Positions 179-60,374 of a stretch of DNA of 64,000 nt are shown here, one piece after another. Below the pieces are notes generated by a model, which worked only from the letters and a program-made list of their open reading frames with translations, ran no database searches and was not told the origin of the DNA. Both the position numbers and the translations under genes were made by a program. The stretch's first letter is position 1. Every line of letters starts with the position of its first letter. The DNA is from Stegostoma tigrinum (taxonomy: Eukaryota), in NCBI RefSeq assembly GCF_030684315.1, contig NC_081362.1, positions 14,254,589 through 14,318,588 on the forward strand. The letters run 5' to 3'.

Positions 179-2624
179 TCGTTAATCAATTTTTTAAAAA
201 TCTCCTATGCACCATATCAGCTGCATTATATTGTTTAGTGCTGTCTGTTACCTTACCTAAAACCTCCCAATTACTTAGACATGAGTGGCTTTAAGATATT
301 TGTGCTAACCTTCTTCAATTAATCTACAATTAGCCAAGCCCCACATTATCATTCCTAAAGACATCCCCACTGCAAAGGTTAATCTGACTGGCCTGCTGCT
401 GTTGGGTTTATCCTTGCATCACTTTTTTTTATGACCAGGGAGTAACACTTACAATTCTTTTGTGTTTTCGTACCATACCCAAATCTCATGAGGATTGGTG
501 AATTATGTCTGGTACCTTTATAATTTCCATTTCACACAAGCAACCAAAGAATCATGCATCTGCACGTGTGACTTTGCTATTTTACGTACAACCAAAGTTT
601 CCATTACATTCTCTTTATCAATTTTTAGTCCATCTTGTATCTAAATAACCTCATCTTTCACCATGACTTGGTCTGTATCATCTTCTTTGGTACACAACTA
701 GTTTCTCAGGAATGTCCTTTGCACAATATGTTTCTCTTTTTTTGGTTTCTAGTTAGTTTCAAATCTCTTCTTACTACTATTATTTACATATTTGTAAAAG
801 ACTTGGGTTCTCTTTTATGTTCACTGCTGGTTTATTCTCATGTTCTCTCATTGACCCCTCTTACTTCATTTTTCACTTGCCCTCTGAACCACTTATATTG
901 AGCCTTGTTGTTATTCATATTATCAACCTGACATTTATCATACACTGTCTTTTTCTGGTTTATTTCACTGTCTGTTTTCTTCAAAATCCAGAGAGCTTGA
1001 TCATGGTTGTCCTGACTTTCCTCCTCATGGGAATGTACCTTGATTCTCAACCCATTTCTTGAAAGACTCCACTCCAGGCTGAGACACTTCCCCGAGAATG
1101 CCGGGGCGGAAGGAAAGGAGCACGGAGAAAGGAAAGAAACGGACGGCAAGGACTAAATTTTACTCCCATCTAACAAACAGATTTTTGAGGAGGTATCTTC
1201 ATAAAGTCCTTGAGGCAGAAGGAAATAGACCTTACTGTCGATATCGGTGGATCATAAACACCAGTATAGTGGATGGTTAGCTGTGAAGCACCTGTTTTTA
1301 TTCCCAACTGACAGCTAAATTTTATTGTGGTCAAACTTTAGACAAACTACTCAAACCTCTGGAATACATTAAAACATTCTGTTTCCTTTTAATACTTTAA
1401 TATCGAGAGAAACTGAGTTGAATAGTCTAGTGCAACAGCTGTGTCTTGCTTGCGGTTAGTTAACCTTATAGACTGTTTCTCATTTTTGATCAAATTTGTA
1501 TCCTGCAAAATGAATGGGCTGACATTGTGCTTTTGATGAGTGGACCAAATTTTACTCCATCTGTCAAACAGATTCTTCATCAAACAATAGAGTGGCAAAA
1601 TGTATTTTTTAAAATTATTCTCTGATGTGGTGGATACGTTTGGGAATGTCTTTAGTTTTATCCTTTAGCCACCTTTTGGACCTCTGAGGGAAGGCTATCT
1701 CTAAGACATTTGTTGAGGATAATTTACATACTGCCATCAGACATTGTACTCTTGTGACAACTCAAGACAATAATTAAATACTGAGGTACTGCCAATTCCC
1801 ATTTTTCCAAAATTGTACTTGAATTCATAAAATCTGTAAAAGGACATTCCATAACAAATAAAATTGACATCGCAGAAAGTGCAATGCAATGAAGTTCTTT
1901 TCATACAACATGTAACATGCCAGGTGCCTCACTAAAATTGCAGTTGTAAGTGATGTTTACAGAGTACATTTTATGTCAATCAGAGCTGTCCCAGGGGTTC
2001 TCACGTATTTCGACCCCTCAGTATACAATTGCTGCTAAGCCTTTCCCCATTGAACATTGTGGTTGCATCCCCGAGTTTAGTATGCCATTTCTGGAACATC
2101 AAATGAGCAGGTCAACAACACTCAGTCCTGGCCACTTAATTGCACTAGAAGAGGAGCCCTATTCTGTTATGATCTATTTTGTTTGTAGGTGAAATAAACA
2201 AGGAAGGGTGTTAGATTACTCCCCTAGGAACTGACTCCCTCATTAACAATGCAAAGCGAAGTACAACAAATTCTATAGTGTATTTCACCACAATCTGTGC
2301 CAAATAAAGTCACATAGAAAATTCATTTGCAGTTGGTATTTATTTTGAAAGCACTGAATTGATGCAATTTGTAGTTGGAACAAAAGCTGAGTTGCCCAAC
2401 ATACCTTTTCCCAAATCAAGATTTTGGGTGTTTACTTTTGACGGAGTGGCCATTTGCTGAGATAAGAACTGATGAGTTGAACACCACCCTGAGCAAAGGT
2501 TAATGCTGGCCCAACTTTGGTTAGTTGATTGGTTTATTTGCAGCTCTTGGTACATGGAATTATGCAAATTACATTTTGAATCCTTTCAGATTGTATGAGA
2601 TGGTGGTTGTGCCTCTGTAATATC

Positions 2625-3190
2625 CATAAGATATAGGAGTAGAATTTGGCTATTTGGTGCATTGTGTCTGCTCCACCATTCAATCATGGCTGATATATTT
2701 CTCATTCCGTTCTCCTACCTTCTCCCTATAACCCATGATCTCTTTGCTATTCAAGAACCCATCTATCTCTGACTTAAATACACTCAATGATTTGGCCTCC
2801 ATAGCCTTCTACAGCAATGAATTCCACAGATTTACCACTCTATTACTGATGAAATTCCTCCCCAAAGGGTCATTCCTTCACTCTAAGACAGTGCCCTCAG
2901 GTACTAGTCTCTTCTAGTGGAAAGATCTCCATATCCACTCCTTCTAAACTACATTGAGTACAGACCCCAGAGTCCTGAACCACTCCTTCAGTCTTGGGAT
3001 CCTTTTTGTGAGCCTTCTTTGGACCCCCTCCAAGGCCAGCATATCCTTTCTGAGGTACTGGGCCAAAAACTGCTGTCAACATTTCAAATGCAGTCTAAAC
3101 AGAGCCTTCAACAGCCTCAGCAATACATCCCTGCTCTTGTATTCTAGCCCCCTCAAAATGAATATTATAATTGCATTTGCCTTCCTAAGT
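2625..3190 (-). mobile_element. CR1-clade LINE 3' fragment
   Basis: Minus-strand translation gives CR1 ORF2 C-terminal motifs (RKANAII..ILRGLEYKSRDVLLRLLKALFRLHLKC, compare ..LY..LVRPHLEYC). The ataagatataggagtagaa tail is shared with the copies at 47825 and 55110. Confidence 0.75.
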
Positions 3191-3599
3191 CGTATGTCAT
3201 ATTTCTCAGCAAAAACATTTTGCTGGTCTTTGAATTGCCATGCACAAACTAAGACTAATCGAAACATTGTAACATACTGCATCATTTGACATTGCTCACA
3301 AAATGCCATACAATTCTAAATCCAGTGCTCTCGTTCTTTGAAAAAAATCTGTAGGGCACATCCGTGGCTTTGTTCAAAATAGTGTGATAAATTGATTGTT
3401 GCCTGTGCAACTTCAATGTGAATGACACCTACCATAACGTTTTCATAATGAATCAGTGCTAGCATCACTATGTGCATATGGTGCACTTGGAGGAAGCAGA
3501 CTGTTGGAGTGCTTCAGGGGAGGTTAATGCACTAGAACAAGGGTGGCACTCTGAAACTTGTCATCAACATTTAGGCATCTAAATAGTCAATTCATAGTG

Positions 3600-4355
3600 A
3601 AGAACTTGACTATTGATGAAAAAGCTTTTCATCTTGCACTTGTCAGGACAATTCACAAGAATGCCAATTTAAGAGAAAATCAACATTTATACAACATGAG
3701 AGGGAACTGCTGAATGGTTGGCAAGCCGTAAATAATGCACACTTGATTGACAGCTAACATGTTTTAAATTTTAAATCAGCTGTTGCCCTGACAAATTAAC
3801 CAACAAATGGCTTCCGCTATTTTGTACGTTGAAACAGGCACAGTGCATGCGCATATTCTTCCTGCCTACAAAGAACAGGGCCCTATGTATTAATATACAT
3901 GGTGTGGTCTATTACTGCGTGTTGAAAACTGAGATACCAATTGACCACCCTGAATTGGTTGTCTGTATAATTCTTTACATGCTCCGGATTGTGGAGCAAA
4001 TGTTGTCCAGTTATGGAATCACATCTAATGTTAGATACTGTTGTGCAAGTTTTGCAACCACAATCTGATTGTATGTGGTCAGTATCTTGTTTGTTGCGAA
4101 CAGCCAAAGAGATGTGAAGTTTTGATATGATCCACCAGTCTTTCTGTTATGTGACCTATGCATCTAACATTGCATTGGCACTGAAAGTCATTACTACTTT
4201 GTGTGATTGACCAATTTTTTACTGGCTTGAACACAAAATCCTGTTAGTGTTAAACACCGTTCGTGTTGCTACTGCATAGTAGCAGCTTGAAACAGCTAAA
4301 TTCACCTGTTGCTCAAACCTTTGAGTTGCCTTCCCCTTCCAGGGTAATCAGTGGT
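3600..4355 (-). mobile_element. Old Penelope-like element (family D): GIY-YIG C-terminal region plus 3' end
   Basis: Degenerate minus-strand peptides LPWKGKATQRFEQQVNLAVSSCYYAVATRTVFNT..., FQCQC...IG... and CDSITGQHLLHNPE...NYTDNQFRVV resemble the PLE linker and GIY-YIG region. A decayed hammerhead-like motif CTGACAAGTGCAAGATGAAAAGCTT lies at 3646-3622. Confidence 0.65.
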
Positions 4356-4494
4356 GGATTAGGCACTTTACAGCCACATGAATAAATGCAGAAATTCCTA
4401 GACTTTGTAGGAACATGTGTATGCACTGCATTTCAGCAAAATCAGTGACAAATGCTGTGTTATAGGTTAATGATTCAGGCTGGAGAATGTGAAG

Positions 4495-5430
4495 TCAGAG
4501 GATAAGTAGTAATATGGATTGCTAGGTAGCTTCAAGACAAAGAGCAGACAGTGGTAGTAAAGAATAGTTATTCAGAGTGGCAGAATGTGAAAAGTCGTGT
4601 TCCACAATGACTGGGGCAGGGGTCACTGCTGTTCTCAAATTATGTTAACAAATGGCCATTCAAAGACATAATTTCTAAAGTTGCAGAAGACATGAAATTG
4701 AGGATATAGTCAATATTAAGGAAGGACTGCAGAAAATTACATTAATAAAACTGTAGAATGGGTCAGTGTTTGACGGATGAAGTTTCAACCTGAGGTAATA
4801 TATTTTGCTTTGAGAATTAGTGAGGTCACTTATTGCTTGGGAGTTGCAAATCTCTGTGAGGTGATGGAATAAAGGATCTTCGAGTACATATACAACATCC
4901 CTGCAGGTTGCACAAGTTATGAAGGTTTATTTTTTAAATAAAACAAACAAGCGTTACACCTTATTTTTAAAGAGTTGAATGAAAACTAGGGAAATTATGC
5001 TCATATATATCAAGTAATAACTGACAGCTTAGGTCTCTTTTCTTTTGAGGAAAGAACACCGAGGGGGTGACCTAATGAACAGAGGTATTTATAATTCTGA
5101 AAGGTTTTGATTGAGTGATGGAGAGAACGTTTCATCTTGCAGGGTAGAGCATATTCAGAGGCAATCAGTATGTGCTGATCACCAACAAACCCGATAGAAA
5201 GTTTCTCTACCTAAAGAACAGTGAGAAAATTGAACTCACAATGGTAGGGAGTGGTTTAAGCAAATTGGATAGAGACATTTAAAGGAAAGTAAGATGAGTG
5301 CAAATGGTGGAAGTCAATAAATAGTTACAAGAAGTACAAATTTCGATGAGAAAAAATATAATGTGGCTCATTTGAAACATAAGTGCTGTCATGAATAGGT
5401 TGAACTGAATGGCTTGTTTCTGTGCTGCAA
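4495..5430 (+). mobile_element. Highly degraded CR1 LINE (RT region and 3' end)
   Basis: Remnant motifs ISKVAEDMKL (compare ISKFADDTKL) and LGLFSFEE...RGDL. CR1-type tail tgaactgaatggcttgtttctgtgctg. Confidence 0.6.
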
Positions 5431-6409
5431 ATCCTATGGAATCAAGTTATGGCTATACATAAATGTGAAATTTACATTCATGTGTACTTGCAGTATAAAA
5501 AATAGGGTACTGTCTTTGGGGCTTCACAGTAAAAAGCTGGAACAGTTAAGAATTCAGCCGAAAATTATACAATATGTGGATATGTTTTTAAGAGAGGTAC
5601 ATCAGGGTGACAAAAGTTCTAAATTGGATGCCCCAAGTATTGATGTTCAAACCGGTACTATTATCAACTTTCAGTCAATAATTAGAATTGGACAAATGTG
5701 TTGATAAAATCTAGGAGACACTGTTGATTCTGAGATCAATGCTTATGAAATGACTGATTTAAAGTAGACAGAAGCGGTGCCACATAAAATTCAATTGGAA
5801 TAAGTTTGAAGATCTTTACATCAGAAGAAAGAGTAGCTATGCTCTGAAAATGATACAGTAATGATTCAGGACAAACCTGTAAAGAATAGGTAGCCATAGA
5901 AGTCTTCAGGTTAACAATATCCAATCAACATCAAATAATGATCAACAATTCAGGTAGAATGATGAGCTACACCGTGAAAGTGGTCCAATACAAGTGGAGA
6001 AAATCTTTTTTTACATTAAAATGCTGTGGTCAGACCATAAGTGGTAATGTGCCTTAGGCACAGAAATGTAAGGGAGACGTTAAGGCACAGGAACCAATTC
6101 AAGATAAAAACCACAAAGCCAAAAAGGAAAAATCTCATCAATAGAGTTGGGGAGAACAGCTGCAGACCCTAATATTACTTCAGGAACAACTGTGGAGTTG
6201 TAGCTGGCATATTTATTGCATAGATAAACTGACAATCTTGTACTGTCCGCTTGCACAATCACATTTACAATATTTTTAATTCCAGACTTGTTTATTTGTA
6301 GTGGCAGGATTTGAGCTTATGTCACCATCCCTTATTTGTGGAACTAATGTATTTTTGTTTAATTCACTAACTGGTGTAATGCTGACTTTACAGTTCTGAT
6401 GAAAGACTA

Positions 6410-6960
6410 TAAGCTATAGTTTTAGAATGAGACCATTGGGCCCATTGACAGTTCCACCGTTCAGTTATGGCTGACATGGTTCTCAACCTCATTCTCCTGC
6501 CTTCTCAGATTAAATGAGATTAAATTTATTTTTGTTGCATGCAGCGAGATACATTGAAAAGGATTGTTTTGCATGCCGTGCAGGCAAATCACACCATACA
6601 GAATGTAGTATACAGTGTTGCAGCCACAGAGAAGGTACAGAGGAAGAGAGATCAACATTAACGCTTGAGAAATCCATTCAAAAGTCTCATAACAGTGGGA
6701 AGAAGCTGTTCTTAAATATATTTGTACATGTATTACATCTTCTGACTGATGGAAGAGCATATAACTGGGGTGGGAAGTGTCTTTCATTATGTTCGTTGCT
6801 TTTCTGAGGAAGTGGGAAATATAGATGGATTCAATGAATGGAAGGCTAATCTCCCCCTAACCCTTGATCCCCTTAACAATCAAGAACGTAGCTATCTCTG
6901 TCTTAAATATACTCAATGACTTGGTTTCCAAAGCCCTCTGGATCACTGAGTTCCATTAGA
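6410..6960 (-). mobile_element. CR1 3' tail fragment interrupted by a Rex1/Babar-like LINE 3' fragment (about 6506-6850)
   Basis: Flanks match the CR1 tail at 2625-2830 and rejoin across the insert (cctgccttctc | cccctaacccttgatcccc). The insert's minus-strand peptide MKDTSHPSYMLF... resembles the Rex1 C-terminus DPSHPGH.LF.LLPSGRR. Confidence 0.55.
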
Positions 6961-7259
6961 TAAAAAAGGTGATCAACCTGATTAATTAAGTCTGTTCCTG
7001 TTAACTTCAGCATTTTGTATTTTCACTTGAGATTTCCAACATCCACTAACTCTCACTTTTATTTTGGAGAAAGAATATCGTCCAAGTTTTTGATTCCTGC
7101 CCTTAACTTAGAGAATGGAGAGGTGGCTATTATACAAGGAAAGAATCTGTCACATGATCAAATGAGTTAGTACTAGAAGGCTGTGACAGTATCTATATAG
7201 TAAGATAAGCAATGGTCAGAACTTCCATAAGAGGCGTTTGTAAAATTAACAGAAAATTA

Positions 7260-7743
7260 AAAACAAAAGAACTGCAGATGCTATAAATCATGAACAAAAA
7301 CAGAAGTTGCTGGAAAAGCTCAGCAGGTTTGCCAGCATCTGAGAAGGAGAAAACAGAGTTAATGTTTCGGGTCCAGTGACCCTACGAATGCCTGTTAGAA
7401 GCTTAATTGTCATGCGAAACTATTCAAACTCTAAACTAGAGGTATTTTTAAGAACCGTTAGTGTAGATTATTAGCAATCCTGTATAATACACACATACTT
7501 TATATAAAGTACCATATGATTGCATCCAATTACATAATGATATATTCACAACAGTTTGTATAATTGACTATGTTATCCCCAAGCTTTACATATGTACGCT
7601 TAAAATTTCATGAAGCAAGCTCATTTGATTTGTTGTAAAAAGTTCTGAGGAAGGGCCACCGGACCCAAAATGTTAACTCTGTTTTCTCCTTCGCAGATGC
7701 TGCCAGACCTGCTGAGCTTTTCCAGCAACTTCTGTTTCTGTTT
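7260..7743. mobile_element. PLE family B tail-out inverted pair of 3' termini enclosing 261 bp of copied local DNA; 11-bp TSD
   Basis: Arms at 7260-7383 (-) and 7641-7743 (+) are inverted copies (cagatgctgccagacctgctgagcttttccagcaacttctg). TSD acagaaaatta at 7249-7259 and 7744-7754. Confidence 0.85.
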
Positions 7744-8020
7744 ACAGAAAATTATCCTGACATGAACTTCTGTGATTTTCGAACTCATTACCTGATTACA
7801 ATTCTAAACCATTATTACGTTGGCACAAAGTTAGAAATTATTTGCAGCACAGAAGCATGATCTTTGCCTCATTCTGGTACCTATGCTCAAAGTAAGTGTG
7901 GCACTTAAACTGTAGAATACTGTTTATTGCCCACAGTTTTTGTTTAGAAATAAAAGAAAATGTATTTTTACAATAGCAGCTGCTTAATAAATGCAGAACT
8001 CGGTCACATAAACCTTTAGA

Positions 8021-8281
8021 TACGAGCACTTTTTAAAAGCTTAATTGTTATGCGAGACTTTTCAAACTCTAAACTAGAGGTATTTTTAAGAGCCATTAGA
8101 GCAGATTATTAGTAATCCTTTATAATACACTCATACTTTTTATAAAGTGACATATAATTACATCTAATTACATAATGATATATTCACTACAATTTGTATA
8201 ATTCACTATATTGTCTCCAAGCGTTGCAAATGTACGCTCCAAATTTTATGAAGCAAACTCATTTGATTTGTTGTAAAAAGT
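8021..8281 (+). repeat. Donor copy of the 261-bp segment duplicated at 7383-7643
   Basis: Colinear with and the same length as 7383-7643. Long identical tracts include ttcaaactctaaactagaggtatttttaaga and ctcatttgatttgttgtaaaaagt. Confidence 0.9.
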
Positions 8282-9689
8282 ACCTTTAAATGGACATGAT
8301 TTGCATGTGCAAAATCAGTCTGCAAATCACTAATCGATGATGTCATCCCCAGTGATGTGATTTCTAAAGACAAAATTAACGGGGTTAAAATGTAATGAAA
8401 CAATTTGTATGTGATTAAGGACTCAATCAATTTGTACCATGTTATCCAACTGATCATAATGTATATTGTGAAACATGTTATGGTTCAAAATCCGGGAATT
8501 CCCTCCCAAACAGCAATGTGGGACTACCTGTACCAAATGGACTGCCAGGGATCAAAAAGGTAGCTCACTACCACCTTGTCCAGGGCAACTACAGATGTGC
8601 AATAAAAACTGGCTGGACCATCATGTCCACATTACGTGAATGATCTTTTAAAAATGTATTGACTAGTTAGCAATTGAGTGTCTGACTTAGCACACTGCCC
8701 TTTCACCTGGGATTTTGGATGAGTTTCAAGCCACCTGAGCCTTTCAAATTGATTAATGGTGGGCATAATAAATAGTAAAAGTGACAATGGTAATCAAATA
8801 AAAATGAATTTCAAACAAGTGAATATGGAGTTTTATATCTGGGGTTTGATGAAGCTCTGGCAGAGTTTTATGCTAGGAGTATCCCGTTATGAAGTTGAAG
8901 TATAGTATTTAAAATAAAAAGTGTTTCATTCCTCAATGCTCATTTTACTGATTTTGTGAAACAGGTAAATAAATCACTATAAAGGCAGATAAATTCCTGG
9001 GACCTGATCACATGTACCCTTGAACTTTGTGGGAAGCTAGGGAAGCGATTGCTGAGCCCCTTGTTGAGACATTTGTATCATCAATAACTGCAGGTGAGGT
9101 GCCAGAAGACTTGGAGGCTGGCTAATGTGGTGCCTTTATTTAATAAAGGTGATGAGGAAAAGCCAGAGAACTATAGACCGGTGAGCATGACTTCAGTGGT
9201 GGGCAAGTCGTTGGAGAGGATCCTGAGAGATGGGATTTACATGTATTTGGAAAGGCAAGTGTTGATTAGGGATAGTTAACATGGCTTTGTGCATGTAAAA
9301 TCGTGTCTCACTGACTTGATTGAGTTTTTTGAAGAAGTAACGAAAAGGATTGATGAAGGTAGAGCAGTGAATGTGATCAGTATGGACTTCAGTAAGGTGT
9401 TCAACAAGGTTGTGCAGGTTAGACTGGTGAGCAAGGTTAGATCACATGGAATACAGGGAGAACGAGCCTTTGGATACAGAACTGGCTCAAAGGTAGGAAA
9501 TAGAGGATGGTGGTGGGGTGTTGTTTTTCAGACCAGAAGCCTGTGACCAGCAGTATGCCACAAGGATCAGTGCTGCGTCTACTGCTTTTTGTCAGTTATA
9601 TAAGTTTGGATGTGAACATAGGAGGTATGATTAGTAAGATTGCAGATGACACCAAAATTGGAGGTGTAGCAGGCAGCCAAAAAAAGTTA

Positions 9690-11785
9690 ATAAAATGTGA
9701 GGCTGGATGAACACAGCAGGCCAAGCAGCATCTCAGGAGCACAAAAGCTGACGTTTCGGGCCGAGACCCTTCATCAGAGAGGGGGATGGGGTGAGGGTTC
9801 TGGAATAAATAGGGAGAGAGGGGGAGGCGGACCGAAGATGGAGAGAAAAGAAGATAGGTGGAGAGAGTATAGGTGGGGAGGTAGGGAGGGGATAGGTCAG
9901 TCCAGGGAAGACGGACAGGTCAAGGAGGTGGGATGAGGTTAGTAGGTAGATGGGGGTGCGGCTTGGGGTGGGAGGAAGGGATGGGTGAGAGGAAGAACCG
10001 GTTAGGGAGGCAGAGACAGGTTGGACTGGTTTTGGGATGCAGTGGGTGGAGGGGAAGAGCTGAGCTGGTTGTGTGGTGCAGTGGGGGGAGGGGACGAACT
10101 GGGCTGGTTTAGGGATGCAGTTGGGGAAGGGGAGATTTTGAAGCTGGTGAAGTCCACATTGGTACCATTGGGCTGCAGTGTTCCCAGGCGGAATATGAGT
10201 TGCTGTTCCTGCAACCTACGGGTGGCATCATTGTGGCACTGCAGGAGGCCCATGATGGACATGTCATCGAAAGAATGAGAGGGGGAGTGGAAATGGTTTG
10301 TGACTGGGAGATGCAGTTGTTTAATGCGAACTGAGCGGAGGTGTTCCACAAAGCGGTCTCCAAGCCTCCGCTTGGTTTCCCCAATGTAGAGGAAGCCACA
10401 CCGGGTACAGTGGATGCAGTATACCACATTGGCAGATGTGCAGGTGAACCTCTGCTTAATGTGGAATGTCATCTTGGGGCCTGGGATAGGGGTGAGGGAG
10501 GAGGTGTGGGGGCAAGTGTAGCATTTCCTGCGGTTGCAGGGGAAGATGCCGGGTGTGGTGGGGTTGGAGGGCAGTGTGGAGCGAACAAGGGAGTCACGGA
10601 GAGAGTGGTCTCTCCGGAAAGCAGACAGGGATGGGGATGGAAAAATGTCTTGGGTGGTGGGGTCGGATTGTAGATGGCGGAAGTGTCGGAGGATGATGCG
10701 TTGTATCCGGAGGTTGGTAGGGTGGTGTGTGAGAACGAGGGGGATCCTCTTTGGGCGGTTGTGGTGGGGGCGGGGTGTGAGGGATGTGTTGCGGGAAATG
10801 CGGGAGACGCGGTCAAGTGCGTTCTCGATCACTGTGGGGGGAAAGTTGCGGTCCTTGAAGAACTTGGACATCTGGGATGTGCGGGAGTGGAATGTCTTAT
10901 CGTGGGAGCAGATGCGGCGGAGGCGGAGGAATTGGGAATAGGGGATGGAATTTTTGCAGGAGGGTGGGTGGGAGGAGGTGTATTTTAGGTAGCTGTGGGA
11001 GTCGGTGGGCTTGAAATGGACATCAGTTACAAGCTGGTTGCCTGAGATGGAGACTGAGAGGTCCAGGAAGGTGAGGGATGTGCTGGAGATGGCCCAGGTG
11101 AACTGAAGGTTGGGGTGGAAGGTGTTGGTGAAGTGGATGAACTGTTCGAGCTCCTCTGGGGATGACATGTCCATCGTGGGCCTCCTGCAGTGCCACAATG
11201 ATGCCACCCGTAGGTTGCAGGAACAGCAACTCATATTCCGCCTGGGAACCCTGCAGCCTAATGGTATCAATGTGGACTTCACCAGTTTCAAAATCTCCCC
11301 TTCCCCAGCTGCATCCCTAAACCAGCCCAGTTCGTCCCCTCCCCCCACTGCACCACACAACCAGCCCAGCTCTTCCCCCCCCCCCACCCACTGCATCCCA
11401 AAACCAGTCCAACCTGTCTCTGCCTCCCTAACCTGTTCTTCCTCTCACCCATCCCTTCCTCCCACCCCAAGCCGCACCCCCATCTACTTATTAACCTCAT
11501 CCCACCTCCTTGACCTGTCCGTCTTCCCTGGACTGACCTGTCCCCTCCCTACCTCCCCACCTATACTCTCTCCACCTATCTTCTTTTCTCTCCATCTTCG
11601 GTCCGCCTCCCCCTCTCTCCCTATTTATTCCAGAACCCTCACCCCATCCCCCTCTCTGATGAAGGGTCTAGGCCCGAAACGTCAGCTTTTGTGCTCCTGA
11701 GATGCTGCTTGGCCTGCTGTGTTCATCTAGCCTCACATTTTATTATCTTGGATTCTCCAGCATCTGCAGTTCCCATTATCTCTGA
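9690..11785. mobile_element. Penelope-like retroelement (family A), tail-out inverted pair: minus arm 9690-11160, plus arm 11161-11785
   Basis: The minus-strand ORF encodes the RT thumb (LTFLDL, FKPTDSHSYL), the CNRRKCYTC linker and a GIY-YIG endonuclease (VVYCIHCTRCGFLYIGETKRRL). TSD agccaaaaaa(a)gtta at 9675-9689 and 11786-11799. 'ga' microhomology at the arm junction. Confidence 0.95.
11656..11683 (+). ncRNA. Minimal hammerhead-ribozyme-like motif in the PLE 3' terminal repeat
   Basis: CTGATGA-A-GGGT-CTAG-GCCC-GAAACGTC contains the core boxes CUGAUGA and GAAA, a stem II, and the palindrome ACGU in place of helix III. PLE-associated minimal hammerheads are an established class. Confidence 0.65.
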
Positions 11786-12050
11786 AGCCAAAAAAGTTAC
11801 CTCAGATTACAGTGAGACCTTGATCAGATGGATGGGTGGACCAAGGAGTGGCAGATAGAGTTTAATTTCGATAAATGTGAGGTGTTGTATTTTGGAAAGG
11901 CAAATCAGGGCCGGACTTACACACTTAATGGTAAGGTCCTGGGAAGCGTTGCTGAATCAGGAGACCTTGGAGTACAGGTTCATAGTTCCTTGAAAGTGGA
12001 GTTGCAGGTGGACAGAATAGTGAAGAAGGCATTTGATATACTTGAGAAGT

Positions 12051-12246
12051 ATAATGGGAACTGCAGATGCTGGAGAATCCGAGATAACAAAGTGTGGAGC
12101 TGGATGAACACAGCAGGCCACGCAGTGTCTTAGGAGCACAAAAGCTGATGTTTCTCTAGACCCTTCTCTAGGCCCGAAACGTAAGCTTTTGTGCTCCTAA
12201 GATGCTGCTTGGCCAGCTGTGTTCATCCAGCTCCACACTTTGTTAT
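12051..12246. mobile_element. Short PLE family A tail-out inverted pair inside CR1
   Basis: Two inverted 3' termini meet within the hammerhead stem (tctagacccttc | tctaggcccgaaacg). Degenerate TSD atttgatatactt / atttggtatgcct. Confidence 0.85.
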
Positions 12247-15200
12247 TTGGTATGCCTACCTTTTTTGGTCAGTGCATTGAGCAGAGGAGTTGAGAGGTCA
12301 TGTTGCAGCTGTACAGGTCATTGGTTCGGCCACTTTTGAAATACTACTTTCAATTCTGGTCTCCCTGCTATAGGAACGAAGATGTGAAACTTGAAAGGGT
12401 TCGGAAAAGATTGACAAGGATGTTTCCAGGGTTGGAGGGTTTGCGCTATAGGGAGAGGCTGAATAGGCTATGGCTATTTTCCCTAGAGTGTTGGAGGATG
12501 AAGGGTGACCTCATAGAAGTTAATAAAATCACGAGGGACATGGACAGGGTGAATAGCCAAGGCCTTTTCCCCAGGGCAACAGAGCCCAAAACTAGAAGGA
12601 TATAGGTTTAAGGTGAGAGGGGAAAGATTTAAATGGAACCTAAGGGGCAACATTTTCATGTAGAGAATGGTGCGTGTATGGAATGAACTGCCAGAGGAAG
12701 TGGTGGAAGCCAGTACAGTTACGGCTTTTAAAAGGCACTTGGATGGGTATATGAATAGGACAGATTTAGAGGGATAAGGGCCAAATGCTAGCAAACTGGA
12801 CTAGATTAATTTAGGATATCTGTTCGGCATGGATGAGTTGGACCAAAGGGTCTGTTTCCATGCTTACGGCTCTGTGACAACTTTATGAACAGGCATCTCA
12901 AGAAATAGCCTAAATTGAGACGTAAGTTAAATATGAGAGGTATGAAGGTATTTTCTGTGCCAGGATGGCAACTACACACCATAGGTTTTGGAAAGAAACA
13001 GACCTTTGCTTGTCAAGTACAAGTGGTCATGTCTTTTAAATATTGTTAATTAACATTCTTTTCTACAAAAGTCACACAGGTCCTGCCAAGTTGGGTTCTT
13101 TGGATACTTCTATTGTTCCTATTCAGTTGTCAAAATGTGCAGTCAGATTTCCTGACAAGACCAGAACTGAGTTCCACAACTCAGTTACAGGAAACGAACC
13201 AGGAATATGTGTATTCCATTAAGATGCATGCTGCAACATGAAAGCAATAGTGGGAATAAAGAAGCTATAATTATCTCTCATATCTTCAGGAAGCAGTGAA
13301 GCATTTTGAAGTGTAATTAGCTGCTGTCTGCAGGCAGGCGTGGAAGTCCATTTACATAGAGAAAGTACCTGAAACTAGTAAGCATGAAAATGACCAAATG
13401 CACTGTCTTGTTTGTTTTAGTTGGTTTGTAGCCTTCAGGTTGTAGCTCTACTGAAAACGGCTGCTGACGTGGCTTAAAATCAGTGGCAGAATGTAACAAT
13501 TGGTTCAGATAAAATCCTTTGTTCATTTAATAGTTAATATTATTGTGGAAACTGTTTTTCTTCAAATTGTCACTTTATCGAAACATGACTAGTCTTAAAA
13601 AATAAAGTTTCAGATAGACTTGGGATACTTCACTACTGAGTGGTTCATGCTTAAATCTGGTACAGTAGAGGAAATTAACAATCTCTGGTGTTAAATTCCT
13701 ATTCAAGAGGTCATGCAGAACATGTTGGAGATTTTCAAATGAAAGCAAATTAGGTTAAGTGGGACAAATAAATGTCAACTTGCAGTCACATTTCTTTATA
13801 GAAAGCAACTGGCCTCCAGAGTGCAATCTGTTGAGAGGGGTTTATGGGTTTGTTTTGATCCTGAATACCTTTTGTTTGTATCTGGTGTTGCTAAGGCAAA
13901 GACAAAAAAACTGAAGCTTTGCTTTTGTACAGACTGTTATTTCAAAGAAATTGCAATGTACAATATGTATTATGCAAAAACAAAGCATCCTTCAGTAGAG
14001 GATCTGAAAAATCTCAGATCTCAAAATTGTCATTTTATGCGCAACCTGTGCTGTTGCTTATCTTGTGGAGAAGCTGATTTAATCTGTCATATTGCTCTGC
14101 ATCTGTTCAATGTAAGGTGACTCTGCTGCTCAAAGAGATCAGCATGCCCTGACCCATTTAACTTTGTCAATTTAAAAGTCTGTTAATCCCAGGATCAGTT
14201 TGCATTGCTATCTATTATTGAATAGATAGTTGTGTTTAAGTTGCCTTTAGAATCCTTTACCACAGTTGCAAATCATAGTGCAACATAATAAACATAACTC
14301 AAATATAACCCAATGGAATGTTGATGGGATGGAATTGGTCATACATTTTAGATCCTGCCTGAATTTGTTTGCGTTAACATCAGTTTCTACAAGATAGGTT
14401 AGGATAAAATGACCACCGTTGGAGTACATCCACTCTAGAATACAAAATCTTAGAAATAAAAACAGCTATTGCATCTGTTTAGAGTTTTAAAACTTTTAGT
14501 TGATTAACATTTCAACCACAAAAATATAACTTTGTTTTCTGCAAACCACAACATGCCTATAATCTATCTGGCTAATAGTTAGAACAGAATTGACCAATTT
14601 AAAATTACCAACTCGTCTGTCAGTGATTTTTTTCCAAGTCTAGCCTGTTCCAGATACGGCATCAGAGGAAACCTGGAAGAAAGTCACTCCTTTCAAGGGT
14701 AAAGTTACAGACCAAGACACACCTCTTTTTCACGGCAGGACTGCCAAATCCCAAAGACACATCATCGGTGACTGAAAAAGGGTAATTGTGTAAGTCGGGG
14801 AAGGGTTGGTATGCTCGGTGGGTAGGTAAGGGGTATGTCAGGTGGTTGCTTCGGGTGTCAAAGGTTCAGGTCAGTTTGAAGGTGTGCTGATTACGGCAGG
14901 GCAAGGACTTTAGGGTTAACAGTTGCAGGAGGGTTGAATTGGTGGTGAGTTCGGGATTTAGTTTAGTGATGACCTCAGAATTGGTAGGTTTTAATGCTGT
15001 AACTTTCCCTGGGTAGTTATTGAGCTTAAATGAGTTGGAATTCTCCAAGTTCTCCAAACTTAATGGACTCTTTTGGAGAATTCCAGGGGATTGCCCATTG
15101 GAAAATTCAGTTTCCCAAGGAATTCACGAAGAGTCAGCTGCATCGTTAATTCCATATCGTCTTGATATGCAACTCCAGTCTGCAATGCTCCGTTGATTCT

Positions 15201-27158: not shown

Positions 27159-28122
27159 CAGAACAAGTTGAATGATACACTTGATTAATAGCTAGAGTAA
27201 GTATAGTTTGCAGTTTTGGTATTAGGCTCGGATAATGTCAGCTATTCATCCATGAACAAAAGCTGCTGAACTATTAAATGCATTCTGAGTTGTACTGCTA
27301 CTTGTGTTGATTAAATTTTTGTTCATTACCAACTCTGCCAACATAAGGAGATCCCAATATCAGCTGTAGTATCAGAGAAAAACAGCTGAATAGATATCAT
27401 ATACTTCCTCGAAGGAAGTAAACATGGGGAAAAAAATGTATAATGTTGGCAACATTCCTTCATTTCCTAGTAACCAGTAATAGAACAACCCTTAAAACCC
27501 AAGAGAATATTATGGAGCAGAGGAATGGTTGAACTTTGTCAGTAATAATGAGACAAAGGAACAAGAATTTCAGCCCTGACCAGGAACGGATGCGGAAAGG
27601 TGCAAAAATGGCACTATCAACCTATGTTCCCTTTTCTTCCTCCCTGTCTTGCCCCCAGGCCATTTTCTCAGAAGTGGGATGACGGTCCAGTGGGCAGCCA
27701 ATTAACCAGAGGCCAACTGGGATTTCTAGCAAGTTAGCAGAAGCCAGATCAGCCTGCATGTGGAGATTGTTGGGGGAGGCCAAGAGTATGCTCTGTGCAG
27801 GCTTAAAAGCGCTCTCTGCCTGGGCAGTAACAGCCACAGCCTGACTCTGTAGAGGAGTTCCTTGCCCCTCTCCATTTCGTCACAGTGGTGGTCTGTCTGC
27901 AAAAGCCATTTTTTAATTCCAAATTTTAAAAAGTTCAAAAGAAGCAGCCTACCTTTGAAGTAATGATTCATTTAATTTTCTTCACAGCCTGCTATTATTT
28001 ACAAATTGAGAGGTCTATGATTCACTCTCCAGTTTTGAAATTTTACCACTCTATCTTTTGGCCATTATATGGCTGATCAATATTAGGTACCAAGATGAAA
28101 AAGAATCCATTGATCAATAGAG

Positions 28123-28318
28123 ATAACAAGGTGTAGAGCTAGATGAACACAGCAGGCCAAGCAGCATCTTAGGAGCAGGAACGCTGATTTTTCAGGCGTA
28201 GACCAAAGAGTCTAGGCCCGAAACATTAGCTTTCCTGCTCCTAAGATGCTGCTTGGCCTGCTGTGTTCATCCAGATCTACATCATGTTGTCTCGGATTCT
28301 CCAGCATCTGCAGGCCCT
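28123..28318. mobile_element. Short PLE family A-related tail-out inverted pair
   Basis: Inverted arms meet at the hammerhead stem. TSD attgatcaat(a/g)gag at 28109-28122 and 28319-28332. Confidence 0.88.
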
Positions 28319-28719
28319 ATTGATCAATGGAGAAAGACAATATGTGGCTTTTGAAAATTTGAACAACTAAAAAGCAATCTAATTAAAGGCAGTATTGTAT
28401 TAGGTATAAGAAATTCTGCAGTGAGAGCACGTCTGCTGAGAGAAGATAAATCTATTATCAAGAAAACAATTGATGGGCAGGTGTGCTGAGGTTGTCAGTT
28501 AGCAGGTCGAGCATATTCATAGCAGGATTGAGCAGGTCTTCTACTATTTTGATATGACTCCAGGCCCAAAGAGCAGCGCAATCACAGACAAAGGGCAGGA
28601 TGCAAATACTGTGGAAGATATCATGCAAAAATGAAGTGCAGCATTTTTAATACAGAAATCTGAATCATTTTGTGCACAAGGCTATAACCAGGAGGAAGCA
28701 CAACAAGCGAATACGGATT

Positions 28720-28915
28720 CAAACCCAGAAGATGCTGTTGAAACTCAGCAGGTCTGACAGCATCTGTGGAGAGAGAAACAGGGTTAACATTTCAAGGCTA
28801 ATGTGACTGTTCTTCAGAATTCTGTTTCTGTTTCCACAGATGTTACAGACCTGCTAAGTATTTCCAGAGTTTTCTATGTTCCACACTTCCAGCATCCACA
28901 ATATTTTGATTTTAA
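28720..28915. mobile_element. Older PLE-terminus (family C) tail-out inverted pair
   Basis: ctcagcaggtctgacagcatctgtggaga is inverted relative to tccacagatgttacagacctgctaag. The minus strand carries decayed CTGAAGA...TGAAATGTT. TSD not resolved. Confidence 0.65.
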
Positions 28916-29359: not shown

Positions 29360-30883
29360 AAGGGATTCTGAGGGACAGAATTTACATGCATTTGGAAAGG
29401 TAAGGACTAATTAGGAATAGTCAACAAGCTTTGTGCGTGGGGAATCGTGCCTCACTAACTTGATTGGGTTTTTTGATAAGGTGGCAAAGAAGATTGATGA
29501 GGGCAGAGTGGTAAACGTTGTCCATGACTTCACCAAAATGTTCAATAAGGTTCTGTGTGGTAGACTGGTAGGAAGGTTAGATCACGTGGGATCCAATTGG
29601 ATAGGAAATTGTTTTGAAGATAGGAAACGGAGGGCGCTGGTAAAGGGTTGCTTTTCAGAGTGGAGGCTAGTGACCAGCAGTGTGCCGTAAGAGTCGGTAC
29701 AAGGCCCACTGCTTTTTGTCATTTATATAAATGATTTGGATGTAAATATAGGTCATATGGTTAGTAAGTTTGCAGATGACAGTAGGTGGTGTGGTCGACA
29801 GTGAAGAAGATTATCTCAAAGTACAACGGGACCTTGATAAGGTGGGCCGAGGAGTGGCAGCTGGACTTAAATTTAGACAAATGTGCGGTGTTGCATTTTG
29901 GTAAAGCAAACTAGGGCAAGACTAATACAGATGATGGTAGGACCAAGAGGAGTGTTGCTGACCTAAGAGACCTACGGGTGCAGGTGCATAGTCCCTTGAA
30001 AGTGGCAGGTAGACAGGGTAGCTCGTTTGCATTAGTTGGTCAGAACATTGAACATAGAAGTTAGATGCCATGTTGCGGCTGTAGAGGACATTGATGAGGC
30101 CACTTTTAGAAAACTGTGTGCAATTCTGGTTGCCCTTCTACAGGAAGGATGTTGTTAAACTCGAGAGGGTGCAGAAAAGATTTACAAGAACGTTGCCGGG
30201 ACTGGAGAGGTTGAGTTATAGGGAGAGGCTGAATAGGCTGGGGCTTTTTTCCCTGGAGTATTGGAGGATGACAGGTGATGTTCCTAGATGTTTATTAAAT
30301 CGTGAGGGGCATGGTAAGGGTGAACAGCCAAGGCCTTGTCCCCAGTGTGGCAGAGTCTAAAACTAGAGAGTATAGGTTTATGGTGAAAGGGAAAAGGGAC
30401 CTGAACGGTAATATTTTCTTGCAGAGGACTTTGTATGAAACGAGCTGACAGAGGAAGTGGTGGAGGCGGGTACAATTACAACATTTTGAAAGGCACCTGG
30501 CTGTGCACATGAATAGGAAGGGTTTAGAGGGATATAGGCCAAATGCTGGCAAATGGCACTGAGTCAGATTGGAAACAAAAACAGAAATTGCTGGACAGGC
30601 TCAGCAGGTCTCACAGCATCTGTCGAGAGCAATCAGAGTTAACATTTTGCATCCAGTGAGCCTTCCTCAGAGCTGGAAGGGTCACTGGATCTAAAACATT
30701 AGCTCTGAAGGCTTTCCACAGATGCTGGTAGGCCTCCAGAGCTTGTCCAGCAGTTTCTGTTTTTGCTTCTGGTTTATTGCACCTGCAGTTCTTTCGGTTT
30801 TTATCTAGGTCAGATTGGGATGTCTGGGCAGCACGGATGAGTTGGACCAAAGGGTCTTTTTCTGTGTTGTATGACTCTGACTA
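29360..30883 (+). mobile_element. CR1 (HER1-like) LINE RT to 3' fragment
   Basis: Peptides RGESCLTNLIGFFDKV, VSKFADD and RPLLENCVQFWLPFYRKDV. Tail gaccaaagggtctttttctgtgttgtatgactct. Confidence 0.9.
30573..30808. mobile_element. PLE family B tail-out inverted pair inside the CR1 3' UTR
   Basis: Arms are homologous to those at 7260-7743. TSD gtcagattgg at 30563-30572 and 30809-30818. Confidence 0.85.
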
Positions 30884-56310: not shown

Positions 56311-57581
56311 AGAATCTGTGTTCTGACACGAAGACGGTCTTTCAGCTATCATCTTTGCAGTGTTTCTGTAAATAATTCAACTCAGCTTAATTGTCATTAT
56401 GCTTGTTTATTTGAAGTGTTGGGAAAGGCAGAAATTAGATTGTAATGCAATTCTGTGCTACAAAGCAAAATGACAAATGCATTGCTGAAATTTGGGGAAG
56501 AATTTCATCAACTCCTGGTGACACTGCTGAGGTCCGGCAACTTCCAGCCAATCTGAGATGGGACTTCCTGCCCTACCCGGATCTGGGCAGAAATCTGTCT
56601 TGCAGCCAATGAACACCCCTCAGAGCGTGGTCTCTCCTGGACTGGGGCAAGTTTTAGGGGAAGGTGATATCCTGCGTTTTTGGGTTTCCCCACATGTGAC
56701 CAAACCCTCCGCTGCTGAGAACAATTCAAAATGTTACAATTTCTCCCTATGATGCTGGAAAGCCTGTACTGTTTACTTTAAAAGTGCCAAAATGTTAATA
56801 CAACTTTTGTCTTGCGACATCATTCCTAAGCAAACATTCAAACTTGTTTAGCTCTACTGCCACACCGCTAAAGATGTAACATCTCAAAAGAGGCTGTCAC
56901 CCCATTGTTTTGGCCAGTGAAGAGAGGACACCTTTAAGAAGAAAAGGAAACAGCAAAGCAGTTGTGAAAAAATAAACAGCAATAGTACATTCATTGTTCA
57001 AAAACAAATATAAACCAAAACCTAAGGAAACTTCTATGTTAGGCAATCAGGATGGCGGTCAAGTAGGGCTCATCCTCTCCAACTACTTTTATTTTTATCT
57101 AACTTTTGTCTTGAGCACAGACGGCATCAATGGCAGTAAGAAACCCCAGTACAAACTCAAGTGGGCCCAGCACAGACCCTGAGGCAGCAGCGAGTGAGCC
57201 TGAGACCTGGCATCAGAATGCCCATCTCCTGCTACCGGTGCACAACACAGCACCTACATTTATGTTACAACTGCTCTCAGCAACAGATCTTATTCACATT
57301 TAACTTGTACTATTACATATAGTCAAATAGGTAATCATTATACATCACATGATATTTGCCAAAGTCGCAGAAAATTGATCTTTCTACCTGTTATGATTAA
57401 TGATAAGCTCTTTATATGATTCACATTCTTTAACCAACTTTACTATTTATTTTGCTGATTTGTTACATAATGTAATTTGCATGTGAAGACCAAAGTGTTT
57501 CATCATGCATATTGGATTCAGGTAACAGGCTGTTGAAAGAACCATGTGAAGATCTGCAGAAAGGCAATCCAAACGAACCAT

Positions 57582-60374
57582 GATAATAAAGTGTGGAGCT
57601 GGATGAACACAGCAGGCCAAGCAGCATCTCAGGAGCACAAAAGCTGACGTTTCAGGCCTAGACCCTTCATCAGAAAGGGGGATGGGGTGAGGGTTCTGGA
57701 ATAAATAGGGAGAGAGGGGGAGGCGGACCGAAGATGGAGAGAAAAGAAGATAGGTGGAGAGGAGAGTATAGGTGGGGAGGTAGGGAGGGGATAGGTCAGT
57801 CCAGGGAAGACGGACAGGTCAAGGAGGTGGGATGAGGTTAGTAGGTAGGAGATGGAGGTGCGGCTTGGGGTGGGAGGAAGGGATGGGTGAGAGGAAGAAC
57901 AGGTTAGGAAGGCAGAGACAGGCTGGGCTGGTTTTGGGATGCAGTGGGTGGAGGGGAAGAGCTGGGCTGGTTGTGTGGTGCAGTGGGGTGAAGGGACAAA
58001 CTGGGCTGGTTTTGGGATGCGGTGGGGGAAGGGGAGATTTTGAAGCTGGTGAAGTCCACATTGATACCATTAGGCTGCAGAGTTCCCAAGCGGAATATGA
58101 GTTGCTGTTCCTGCAAGCTTCGGGTGGCATCATTGTGGCACTGCAGGAGGCCCATGATGGACATGTCATCTAAAGAATGGGAGGGGGAGTTGAAATGGTT
58201 CGCGACTGGGAGGTGCAGTTGTTTATTGCGAACCGAGTGAAGGTGTTCTGCAAAGCAGTCCCCAAGCCTCTGCTTGATTTCCCCAATGTAGAGGAAGCCA
58301 CACCGGGTACAATGGATACAGTATACCACATTGGCAGATGTGCAGGTGAACCTCTGCTCAATATGGAAAGTCATCTTGGGGCCTGGGATAGGGGTGAGGG
58401 AGGAGGTGTGGGGGCAAGTGTAGCACTTCCTGCGGTTGCAGGGGAAGGTGCCAGGTGTGGTGGGGTTGGAGGGCAGTGTGGAGCGAACAAGGGAGTCACG
58501 GAGAGAGTGGTCTCTCCGGAAAGCAGTCAAGGGTGGGAATGGAAAAATGTCTTGGGTGGTGGGGTCGGATTGTAGATGGCGGAAGTGTCGGAGGATGATG
58601 CGTTGTATCCGGAGGTTGGTGGGGTGGTGTGTGAGAACGAGGGGGATCCTCTTTGGGCGGTTGTGGTGGGGGCGGGGTGTGAGGGATGTGTTGCGGGAAA
58701 TGCGGGAGACGCAGTCAAGGGCGTTCTCGACCACTGTGGGGGGAAAGTTGAGGTCCTTGAAGAACTTGGACATCTGGGATGTGCAGGTGTGGAATGCCTC
58801 ATCCTGGGAGCAGATGCGGCGGAGGCAGAGGAATTGGGAATAGGAGATGGAATTTTTGCAGGAGGGTGGGTGGGAGGAGGTGTATTCTAGGTAGCTGTGG
58901 GAGTCGGTGGGCTTGAAATGGACATCAGTTACAAGCTGGTTGCCTGAGATGGAGACTGAGAGGTCCAGGAAGGTGAGGGATGTGCTGGAGATGGCCCAGG
59001 TGAACTGAAGGTTGGGGTGGAAGGTGTTGGTGAAGTGGATGAACTGTTCGAGCTCCTCTGGGGAGCAAGAGGCAGTGCCAATACAGTCATCAATGTAACG
59101 GAGGAAGAGGTGGGGTTTGGGGCCTGTGTATGTGCGGAAGAGGGACTGTTCCACGTAACCTACAAAGAGGCAGGCCCTTGATTGCGTCTCCCGCATTTCC
59201 CGCTAATGCCCTTGACTGCGTCTCCCGCATTTCCCGCTACACATCCCTCACACCCTGCCCCCGCCACAACCGCCCAAAGAGGATCCCCCTTGTTCTCACA
59301 CACCACCCCACCAACCTCCAGATACAATGCATCATCCTCCGACACTTCCGCCATCTACAATCCGACCCCACCACCCAAGACATTTTCCATCCCCACCCTT
59401 GTCTGCTTTCCGGAGAGACCACTCTCTCCGTGACTCCCTTGTTCGCTCCACACTGCCCTTCAACCCGACCACACCTGGCACCTTCCCCTGCAACCGCAGG
59501 AAATGCTACACTTGCCCCCAACACCACCTCCCTCACCCCTATCCCAGGCCCCAAGATGACTTTCCACATTAAGCAGAGGTTCACCTGCACATCTGCCAAT
59601 GTGGTAAACTGTATCCATTGTACCCGGTGTGGCTACCTCTACATTGGGGAAATCAAGCAGAGACTTGGGGACCACTTTGCAGAACACCTCCACTCGGTTC
59701 GCAATAAACAACTGCACCTCCCAGTCGCGAACCATTTCAACTCCCCCTCCCATTCTTTAGATGACATGTCCATCATGGGCCTCCTGCAGTGCCACAATGA
59801 TGCCACCCGAAGCTTGCAGGAACAGCAACTCATATTCCGCTTGCGAACCCTGCAGCCCAATGGTATCAATATGGACTTCACCAGCTTCAAAATCTCCCCT
59901 TCCCCCACCGCATCCCAAAACCAGCCCAGTTCGTCCCCTCCCCCCACTGCACCACACAACCAGCCCAGCTCTTCCCCCTCCCCCCACTGCATCCCAAAAC
60001 CAGCCCAGTCTGTCTCTGCCTCCCTAACCTGTTCTTCCTCTCACCCATCCCTTCCTCCCACCCCAAGACGCACCTCCATCTCCTACCTACTAACCTCATC
60101 CCACCTCCTTGACTTGTCCATCGTCCCTGGACTGACCTATCCCCTCCCTACCTATACTCTACTCTCCACCTATCTTCTTTTCTCTCCATCTTCGGTCCGC
60201 CTCCCCCTCTCTCCCTATTTATTCCAGAACCCTCACCCCATCCCCCTCTCTGATGAAGGGTCTAGGCCCGAAACGTCAGCTTTTGTGCTCCTGAGATGCT
60301 GTTTGGCCTGCTGTGTTCATCCAGCTCCATACTTTATTATCTTGGATTCTCCAGCATCTGCAGTTCCCATTATC
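57582..60374. mobile_element. Penelope-like retroelement (family A), tail-out inverted pair: minus arm 57582-59175, plus arm 59174-60374
   Basis: The minus arm encodes the RT catalytic motif LFLRYIDDCIG, the thumb, the CNRRKCYTC linker and GIY-YIG (VVYCIHCTRCGFLYIGE). The plus arm repeats linker, GIY-YIG and 3' end with frameshifts. TSD ccaaac(g/a)aacca at 57569-57580 and 60376-60387. Confidence 0.95.
60250..60277 (+). ncRNA. Minimal hammerhead-ribozyme-like motif in the PLE 3' terminal repeat
   Basis: CTGATGAAGGGTCTAGGCCCGAAACGTC, identical to 11656-11683. Confidence 0.65.

Follow-up and report, generated by a model that had tools for sequence, protein, structure and literature searches.

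Short units with inverted ends, a TSD and host cargo are known from MITEs and Pack-type DNA transposons. Among retroelements, Penelope-like elements (PLEs) are described with an inverted, 5'-truncated second copy, a tail of 30-40 bp on one end and a hammerhead in the pLTR (PMC8557442). In vitro, a PLE enzyme cuts and extends both strands, and two internal start sites explain the tail, while the sections of that study available to us leave the steps after priming unvalidated in vitro (PMC11167929). The accessible text of these two PLE studies describes no foreign DNA at the inner junction (PMC8557442, PMC11167929). Host DNA between pLTRs inside one TSD has been reported for the Penelopes of the rotifer Adineta vaga, together with inverted pLTRs and an optional tail on one end (PMC3846280). 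For L1 in human tumours, 22 templated insertions were counted among approximately 3,598; they are typically shorter than 250 bp, are templated within 15 bp and were ascribed to strand annealing (10.1101/2024.08.27.596794). In cell lines, three L1 insertions carried nearby templated genomic DNA and nine carried two RNAs (PMC11702581). L1 twin priming and R2-type template jumping are processes in which two cDNAs, primed at the two sides of the break, are joined by microhomology and the RT moves to a second template (PMC2912911). The initial annotation of the locus studied here regarded local capture of host DNA by a vertebrate PLE as possibly undescribed. In general terms the phenomenon was already on record, as host DNA between pLTRs in rotifers (PMC3846280) and as nearby templated insertions of L1; for vertebrate PLEs we found no paper on local host capture in a searched literature that covers few subscription journals, and nothing on capture in the available part of a 2026 retrozyme preprint.

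A pair of Penelope-like ends encloses a copy of nearby host DNA

The window, i.e. the whole stretch of 64,000 nt from Stegostoma tigrinum that was analysed, contains at 7249-7754 a TSD-bounded, outward-facing pair of Penelope-like ends that enclose a 261-bp copy of nearby host DNA (Table 1). The exact TSD, ACAGAAAATTA, was read directly from the sequence; it occurs twice in the whole window, as the two TSD copies, and six times in 1.89 Mb. The left arm is the reverse complement of the end of element family F1 including its tail, and is 90% identical to a natural long F1 copy over reference positions 109-233. The 5' start of the right arm sits just before a decayed minimal hammerhead motif, and a genome search with this arm returned 1571 first-look candidates, the best of them at 96%. 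The two arms overlap over 91 nt at 90% identity, and at about 124 bp on the left and 103 bp on the right they are of unequal length, which corrects the description of the unit as having TIRs of about 100 bp.

The captured piece and its donor align over their full length without gaps and with 35 mismatches (23 transitions, 12 transversions; BLAST E 2e-87). The exact TSD, the two outward PLE ends and the colinear spacer of the initial annotation were thus confirmed by repeat search, BLAST and ungapped comparison, as was the AGT common to donor and element at the right junction, to which the left junction adds a single shared T. The donor has the same orientation as the copy, as originally stated, and the distance of roughly 270 bp given for it can be put exactly at 266 bases from the right TSD. 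We also looked for signs that the spacer is a repeat or a part of the PLE. A genome search that skips very common words found two candidates, which are the spacer itself and its donor; the spacer is not covered by the PLE library, and the composite of arms and spacer is single copy in the genome. The proposed distinction from 3' transduction holds, because the cargo lies at the inner junction and no other F1 copy is present within 8 kb of the donor. No sign of function was found for this copy of the insertion.

Table 1. Features of the 7249-7754 insertion and of its donor, in window coordinates.
Feature	Position	Strand	Remark
Left TSD copy, 11 bp	7249..7259	+	exact match to 7744-7754
Left PLE end, family F1, long form with ~30-nt tail	7260..7383	-	cut short inside hammerhead stem II
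Captured host DNA	7383..7643	+	257 nt unique, plus 1-nt T and 3-nt AGT common to the arms
Right PLE end, family F1, short tail-less form	7641..7743	+	starts at the family's commonest 5' stop
Right TSD copy	7744..7754	+	junction also in organism B
Uncopied flank from insertion to donor, 266 bp	7755..8020	+	single copy in window
Donor of captured piece	8021..8281	+	same orientation, on the side of the tail-less arm; unique DNA continues on both sides

The element family and its ordinary two-ended insertions

A GIY-YIG endonuclease upstream of the pLTR, which is a feature of EN+ PLEs, was recognised by way of another family, F2. In one of the longer natural copies of F1, a 122-aa stretch directly upstream of the arm is 51% identical (E 7e-33) to an F2 ORF in the window, and this ORF has a weak GIY-YIG match (E 0.0068, below cut-off). 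The 122-aa stretch alone gave no Pfam match, and the F1 copies in the fetched DNA are too short to reach the RT. In broken F1 frames, Cys-rich stretches precede the endonuclease motif (cf. the CX2-5CxxC linker of Neptune and Nematis). A hammerhead core, CTGAnGA-stem-GAAAC-GTH, is visible at the inner arm end in both families and is decayed in the present copy; an Rfam search gave no hammerhead match, and folding z-scores were unremarkable.

Two-ended insertions were collected from 1.864 Mb in eight fetched blocks, plus 30 kb and 36 search loci; pairs with long spacers were counted within the fetched blocks. PLE ends are dense, with 525 arm matches and 148 tail-out pairs in the 1.864 Mb of blocks, and of 149 neighbouring same-family matches separated by less than 300 nt, 128 are inverted with their tails outward. 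Mixed-family pairs were left out, as was the repeated stretch (from position 118,000) of a segmental duplication within a block on contig C10, after which 164 pairs remained. An exact TSD of at least 8 nt at both outer ends was present in 84 of these, and when the right end was moved by 500 nt as a chance control a match of at least 8 nt was present in 3 of the 164. TSD lengths across the family range from 8 to 18 nt. Every one of the 84 TSD-confirmed pairs consists of one long (tailed) and one short (tail-less) end, in 43 and 41 pairs respectively for the two arrangements by side. This is the inverted, truncated copy with one tail that is typical of EN+ PLEs (PMC8557442). One long plus one short end is the mark of one two-ended insertion, and the constancy of the pattern suggests that each strand regularly takes one particular start site.

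The non-PLE centre measures less than 10 nt in 78 pairs, 12-24 nt in three and more than 200 nt in three, and foreign pieces of 40-199 nt are absent (0/84). Since 78 of the 84 pairs have less than 10 nt of foreign sequence, the two-ended insertion is the normal product and a long foreign bridge a minority outcome.

Several further observations were made on these families. Inner (5') arm ends cluster immediately before the hammerhead core, both in F1 (79/171 arms, starting at reference positions 95-103) and in F2 (136/270 arms). This clustering, which does not coincide with the predicted hammerhead cleavage site, may represent a transcription start or an RT stop. Long, young inverted F2 pairs with PLE-internal centres lie at window positions 9684-11786 and 57578-60374, the former with a 480-codon open frame that has a weak GIY-YIG match, and short same-family palindromes at 12051-12250, 28121-28321, 28720-28913 and 30574-30803. 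The segmental duplication mentioned above, in the block C10:30,000,001-30,200,000, is recent, spans about 90-96 kb and was seen as repeated PLE pairs. The short fillers at L006:1388-1410 (23 nt) and L029:1918-1934 (17 nt) repeat junction-proximal sequence, like the scars of theta-mediated end joining.

Other captures and their frequency

The search for further inverted pairs with non-PLE spacers, which the initial annotation had called for genome-wide, was made in the fetched blocks. Traceable host cargo of 210-261 nt is present in 3 of the 84 TSD-confirmed pairs (approximately 1.9 Mb), the 7249 insertion being one of them, and one of the three donors is not local. The second capture, at C4:70,097,442-70,097,855 (L213:1424-1837; the C4 case), belongs to family F2 and has a 13-bp TSD and a 230-nt centre. 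Its cargo aligns gap-free and at 92% identity with a single place on contig C10 (donor L214:1500-1729); of the eight matches to the cargo in the genome, the remaining six are at 74-94% over at most 92 nt. Capture is therefore not restricted to the target locus, as had been supposed. Both arms of the C4 case end elsewhere than at the usual stop, and the microhomology amounts to 1 nt at either junction. The donor ends at the border of a different repeat, 16 kb away from the third capture. Transduction of a source flank was considered for the C4 case and rejected: the PLE copy about 1 kb from the donor is shorter than 200 bp and is no closer to the C4 arms than are 33 of 257 other arms.

The third capture, at C10:46,650,732-46,651,173 (L226:6732-7173; the C10 case), is a young F2 insertion with arms 98% identical to the reference and a TSD of at least 12 bp. 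Some 1 kb downstream, in the same orientation (L226:8189-8398), lies DNA that agrees with its cargo at 209 of 210 positions, and other matches in the genome reach at most 83%. The geometry repeats that of the 7249 insertion, with the long arm on the left sharing 1 nt and the short arm on the right sharing three, and the short arm starts at the usual 5' stop of its family. The insertion is a candidate for a polymorphic insertion. The single difference between cargo and donor is an A to G on the plus strand; as one site it carries no weight for RNA editing. Since this region was fetched for another reason, the C10 case was not ascertained by its structure. Without the ascertained 7249 insertion, the capture rate is 2 of 83 pairs (95% interval 0.3-8.4%). 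The finding of two further inserts of the same build makes it likely that these elements, in the course of insertion, close the gap between their two ends with copied host sequence.

An old F2 pair at C17:30,165,504-30,165,782 has a 64-nt centre with a 58-nt inverted match of 78% located 263 bp downstream (E 2e-7). This pair has no clear TSD, its genome search found only itself, and it was left out of the 84. Three single-arm candidates, for which the TSD calls may be due to chance, were rejected: a 432-nt piece matched only itself and had no donor, a 149-nt piece is an old repeat (best other match 80%), and a 273-nt piece is a high-copy repeat.

Age of the arms and of the cargo

In the 7249 insertion the arms differ from each other at 9/91 positions (9.9%), and the cargo differs from its donor at 35/261 (13.4%). 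These values, whose comparison had been suggested as a check on a single event, agree with each other (Fisher p 0.46). The differences of the left and right arms from the column-wise majority of 73 arms, 9/125 (7.2%) and 5/102 (4.9%), likewise sum to about the divergence of the duplication. The corresponding values are 4/72 (5.6%) and 19/230 (8.3%) for the C4 case, and 1/95 (1.1%) and 1/210 (0.5%) for the C10 case. Arm and cargo divergence thus agree in all three cases, which favours capture during insertion.

Contigs of a related shark, organism B, were compared with the locus. Organism B differs from S. tigrinum by about 6% in the flank, and over 7744-8020 there are 17 listed substitutions and one 1-base gap. 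A 384-nt contig starts within the right arm and extends across TSD and flank into the donor, and a 107-nt contig joins the left arm to the spacer at the same base, so that the left-arm/spacer and right-arm/TSD/flank junctions are both present. An assembly artefact is thereby ruled out. A 240-nt contig covers 8069-8281 and continues with 27 letters unlike the flank of the donor; this would be expected of a contig that runs 30 letters into a repeat of which the shared AGT is the start. The flank downstream of the donor is present in one run. Organism B has the letter of the spacer at 11 of the 35 sites that differ between spacer and donor. A relative with the duplication and no arms had been named as a finding that would refute the single event; organism B has both together, and insertion and duplication therefore both predate the split. 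An empty site with a single copy of the TSD, which had also been sought, was not seen in the organism B contigs. Within organism B, spacer and donor seem to be about threefold less diverged than in S. tigrinum, with some 10 listed differences, a part of which may be allelic; a slower rate or gene conversion in organism B could account for this. The contigs of a further organism, C, do not cover the donor region; one of them, which we guess to be RNA, covers 6971-7238 at depth 7; it is unstranded and was set aside. No RNA record was listed over the locus, which carries no information about expression.

Host context and template strand

The encoded proteins agree with a shark as the host. The 7249 locus lies approximately 42 kb downstream of the last coding exon that was found of the plus-strand gene RALGAPA2 (L069:5358-5534, +), and the insertion site may lie beyond the 3' end of this gene. 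At this locus, a T-over-A skew of 0.03-0.04 extends to about window position 24000. About 77 kb downstream, on the minus strand, there is a SNAG-like zinc-finger gene, which we take to be INSM1-like, with CFAP61 exons beyond it (mapped matches L035:512-742, -, and L038:8573-8776, -). The donor of the C4 case has a CpG island on one side and, on the other, the first coding exon of the minus-strand gene ODR4. Exon scans of the C10 case and of the C17 block found no gene, and at the C10 case the skews disagree, T-A being positive and G-C negative. A head-to-head TPR gene over the C10 case, expected from mammalian synteny, was discarded as TPR maps 1.9 Mb away.

Copying from the short arm would need a plus-strand template at the 7249 locus and the C10 case and a minus-strand template for the C4 cargo. 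Such agreement as there is between these strands and the apparent direction of host transcription is no more than a hint: the rule was chosen post hoc, three matches would arise by chance with a probability of 1 in 4, and at two of the three sites the strand call is weak. None of the three cargoes contains a splice junction or poly(A).

How the bridge may have been made

Capture is real and recurrent, and in all probability it takes place during PLE integration. We consider it very probable that each unit arose in one integration event with a copied bridge, whatever the template, because the TSD encloses arms and cargo, the ends are of the long and short forms, the divergences agree, and organism B has both arms and duplication. 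The single event with cDNAs bridged by a copied host template that the initial annotation proposed is thereby upheld: the spacer is no repeat, arms and duplication occur together in the relative, their ages agree, and the young C10 case replicates the structure.

For the 7249 insertion the following course of events can be envisaged. The PLE protein would cut both strands 11 nt apart, as seen from the TSD; cutting and extension of both strands have been demonstrated in vitro for another PLE (PMC11167929). Both 3' ends would then be extended, the outer start site giving an end with a tail and the inner one an end without; the anatomy is that of all 84 pairs, and the priming is deduced from it. 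The left-arm cDNA would be the top strand and the right-arm cDNA the bottom strand. Usually, the two cDNA tips would be joined almost directly, as the 78 pairs with short centres indicate. Here, the bottom-strand cDNA would have reached the usual 5' stop, its last three bases would have paired with the AGT at 8279-8281 of a plus-strand template, and this template would have been copied back to 8021; the junction itself is observed, the direction of copying and the RNA nature of the template are presumed. Finally, a single base in common would have served to join the new end to the top-strand cDNA, and the gaps would have been filled.

In this sequence of steps the RT of the tail-less end, within one event, leaves its own RNA at the 5' end and jumps onto host RNA. 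We put this at slightly below even and prefer it, by a narrow margin, to a bridge copied from DNA. The donor of the C4 case on another contig argues weakly for the jump, as do ODR4 at this donor and the RALGAPA2 locus, which give the strand that a jump from the short arm needs, and the single shared base on which priming of the long arm on DNA would rest. By analogy, L1 makes two-RNA insertions (PMC11702581). Against the jump, the cargoes show no direct sign of RNA, the C4 case lacks the usual stop and the 3-nt junction, L1 templated insertions are ascribed to DNA annealing, and there are only three cases, one of which is the ascertained finding. The wider proposition that the PLE RT routinely jumps off the RNA 5' end onto available host RNA, mostly the nascent transcript of the cut locus, in a few percent of approximately 120,000 insertions, seems to us rather doubtful.

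The same single event could have used DNA for the bridge, by an SDSA-like process or by theta-mediated end joining, and this is a possibility of some weight that we would nonetheless not expect to be the right one. The top-strand cDNA (long arm) would anneal to the resected bottom strand at 8021, and either the PLE RT or a host polymerase would lengthen it by 261 nt before its release and its joining to the tip of the short arm over AGT; a sister chromatid or an ectopic locus could serve as template too. Both local donors are in direct orientation and 0.27-1.0 kb away, as annealing across a resected break predicts, and the inverted match 263 bp from the C17 pair, a weaker and old case, is what a same-side fold-back predicts. 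Iterative copying is seen in short centres (the 17-nt filler at L029), and L1 templated insertions are generally explained by a DNA template (10.1101/2024.08.27.596794). However, in each of the three cases priming would have begun on a single homologous nt, the L1 templates are typically within 15 bp of the site as opposed to 266 and about 1000 bp here, and a donor on another contig is not easily reached. A free single-stranded fragment (an Okazaki fragment, a flap or a separately copied RNA fragment) that is ligated or annealed between the cDNA tips would explain local and distant donors alike. Lagging-strand fragments are nucleosome-sized, and the cargoes of 210, 230 and 261 nt fall in a narrow range with no pair holding a piece of 40-199 nt. 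These are three cases only, though, both local donors have the same orientation and side, and microhomology at both ends fits copying better, so that we consider this origin very unlikely.

Two readings dispense with copying during integration. An ordinary PLE palindrome could have formed first and its centre broken later at a hairpin or cruciform, with repair by a templated patch that has nothing to do with retrotransposition. Palindromes are fragile, and PLE palindromes are abundant (128/149). But in none of the three cases, which span 0.5-13% divergence, is the cargo younger than the arms, the short arm is intact to the usual 5' stop in the 7249 insertion and the C10 case, and organism B has arms and duplication, all of which makes a two-step origin improbable. 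Least credible is a local duplication combined with two independent PLE insertions, or else source-flank transduction, a MITE or an assembly error. The density of PLE ends (525 in 1.864 Mb) and the same-family copy about 1 kb from the C4 donor would lend themselves to such an origin. Yet one TSD surrounds the whole unit, the ends show the long-short pairing, and loss of the 266-bp flank needs a further event; the copy next to the C4 donor is short and not specially close to the C4 arms (33/257); and the composite is not amplified, while its junctions recur in contigs of another organism.

The blocks hold 69 TSD-confirmed pairs in 1.812 Mb, a density of approximately 38 pairs per Mb. Roughly extrapolated from two families and non-random blocks, this corresponds to about 120,000 two-ended pairs per genome and, at the rate of 2/83, to about 3,000 captures (350-10,000). 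The genomes of these sharks are thus a very large natural record that makes the last step of PLE integration testable, and mapped donors could tell whether PLEs steadily give rise to short duplications, local as well as long-range, in cartilaginous fish. Should the jump onto host RNA be true, the captures would amount to thousands of dated, stranded samples of germline nuclear RNA. They would then also reveal how a PLE brings its integration to completion in nature, the tailed and the tail-less end each keeping to its own task.

Comparison with known systems

The likeness of the present unit to a MITE, put forward in the initial annotation, is superficial: unlike a MITE, it has unequal retroelement arms, a TSD length that varies from 8 to 18 nt in the family and a composite that remained single copy. 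In L1 twin priming, according to the accessible description, the second primer anneals inside the RNA, whereas both ends of the shark PLE start at the terminus of the element itself, which yields terminal inverted arms (PMC2912911). The available in vitro data on the PLE enzyme show no strand difference in the start site (PMC11167929), whereas each of the 84 TSD-confirmed pairs here combines exactly one long end with one short end. The worked case in A. vaga is a whole intron-containing gene between direct pLTRs, and non-coding cases are mentioned in the accessible text without the position of the donor (PMC3846280); in the shark, the donors were traced and dated, and two of three are local. 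As in the L1 templated insertions, a TSD-flanked insert carries a short copy of a genomic segment that is present elsewhere. Unlike these, the element is a PLE, the insertions are germline and fixed, and the cargo lies between two reverse-transcribed ends. The donors are located at 266 bp, at about 1000 bp or on another contig and not within 15 bp, the L1 figure being the one in the text, to which the supplements may add distances. The rate of capture also looks higher, with 2 of 83 pairs against 22 of approximately 3,598 insertions (10.1101/2024.08.27.596794). The shark insertions thus work like the L1 templated insertions and depart from that class in distance, and they extend to a vertebrate what was a one-sentence observation in the rotifer.
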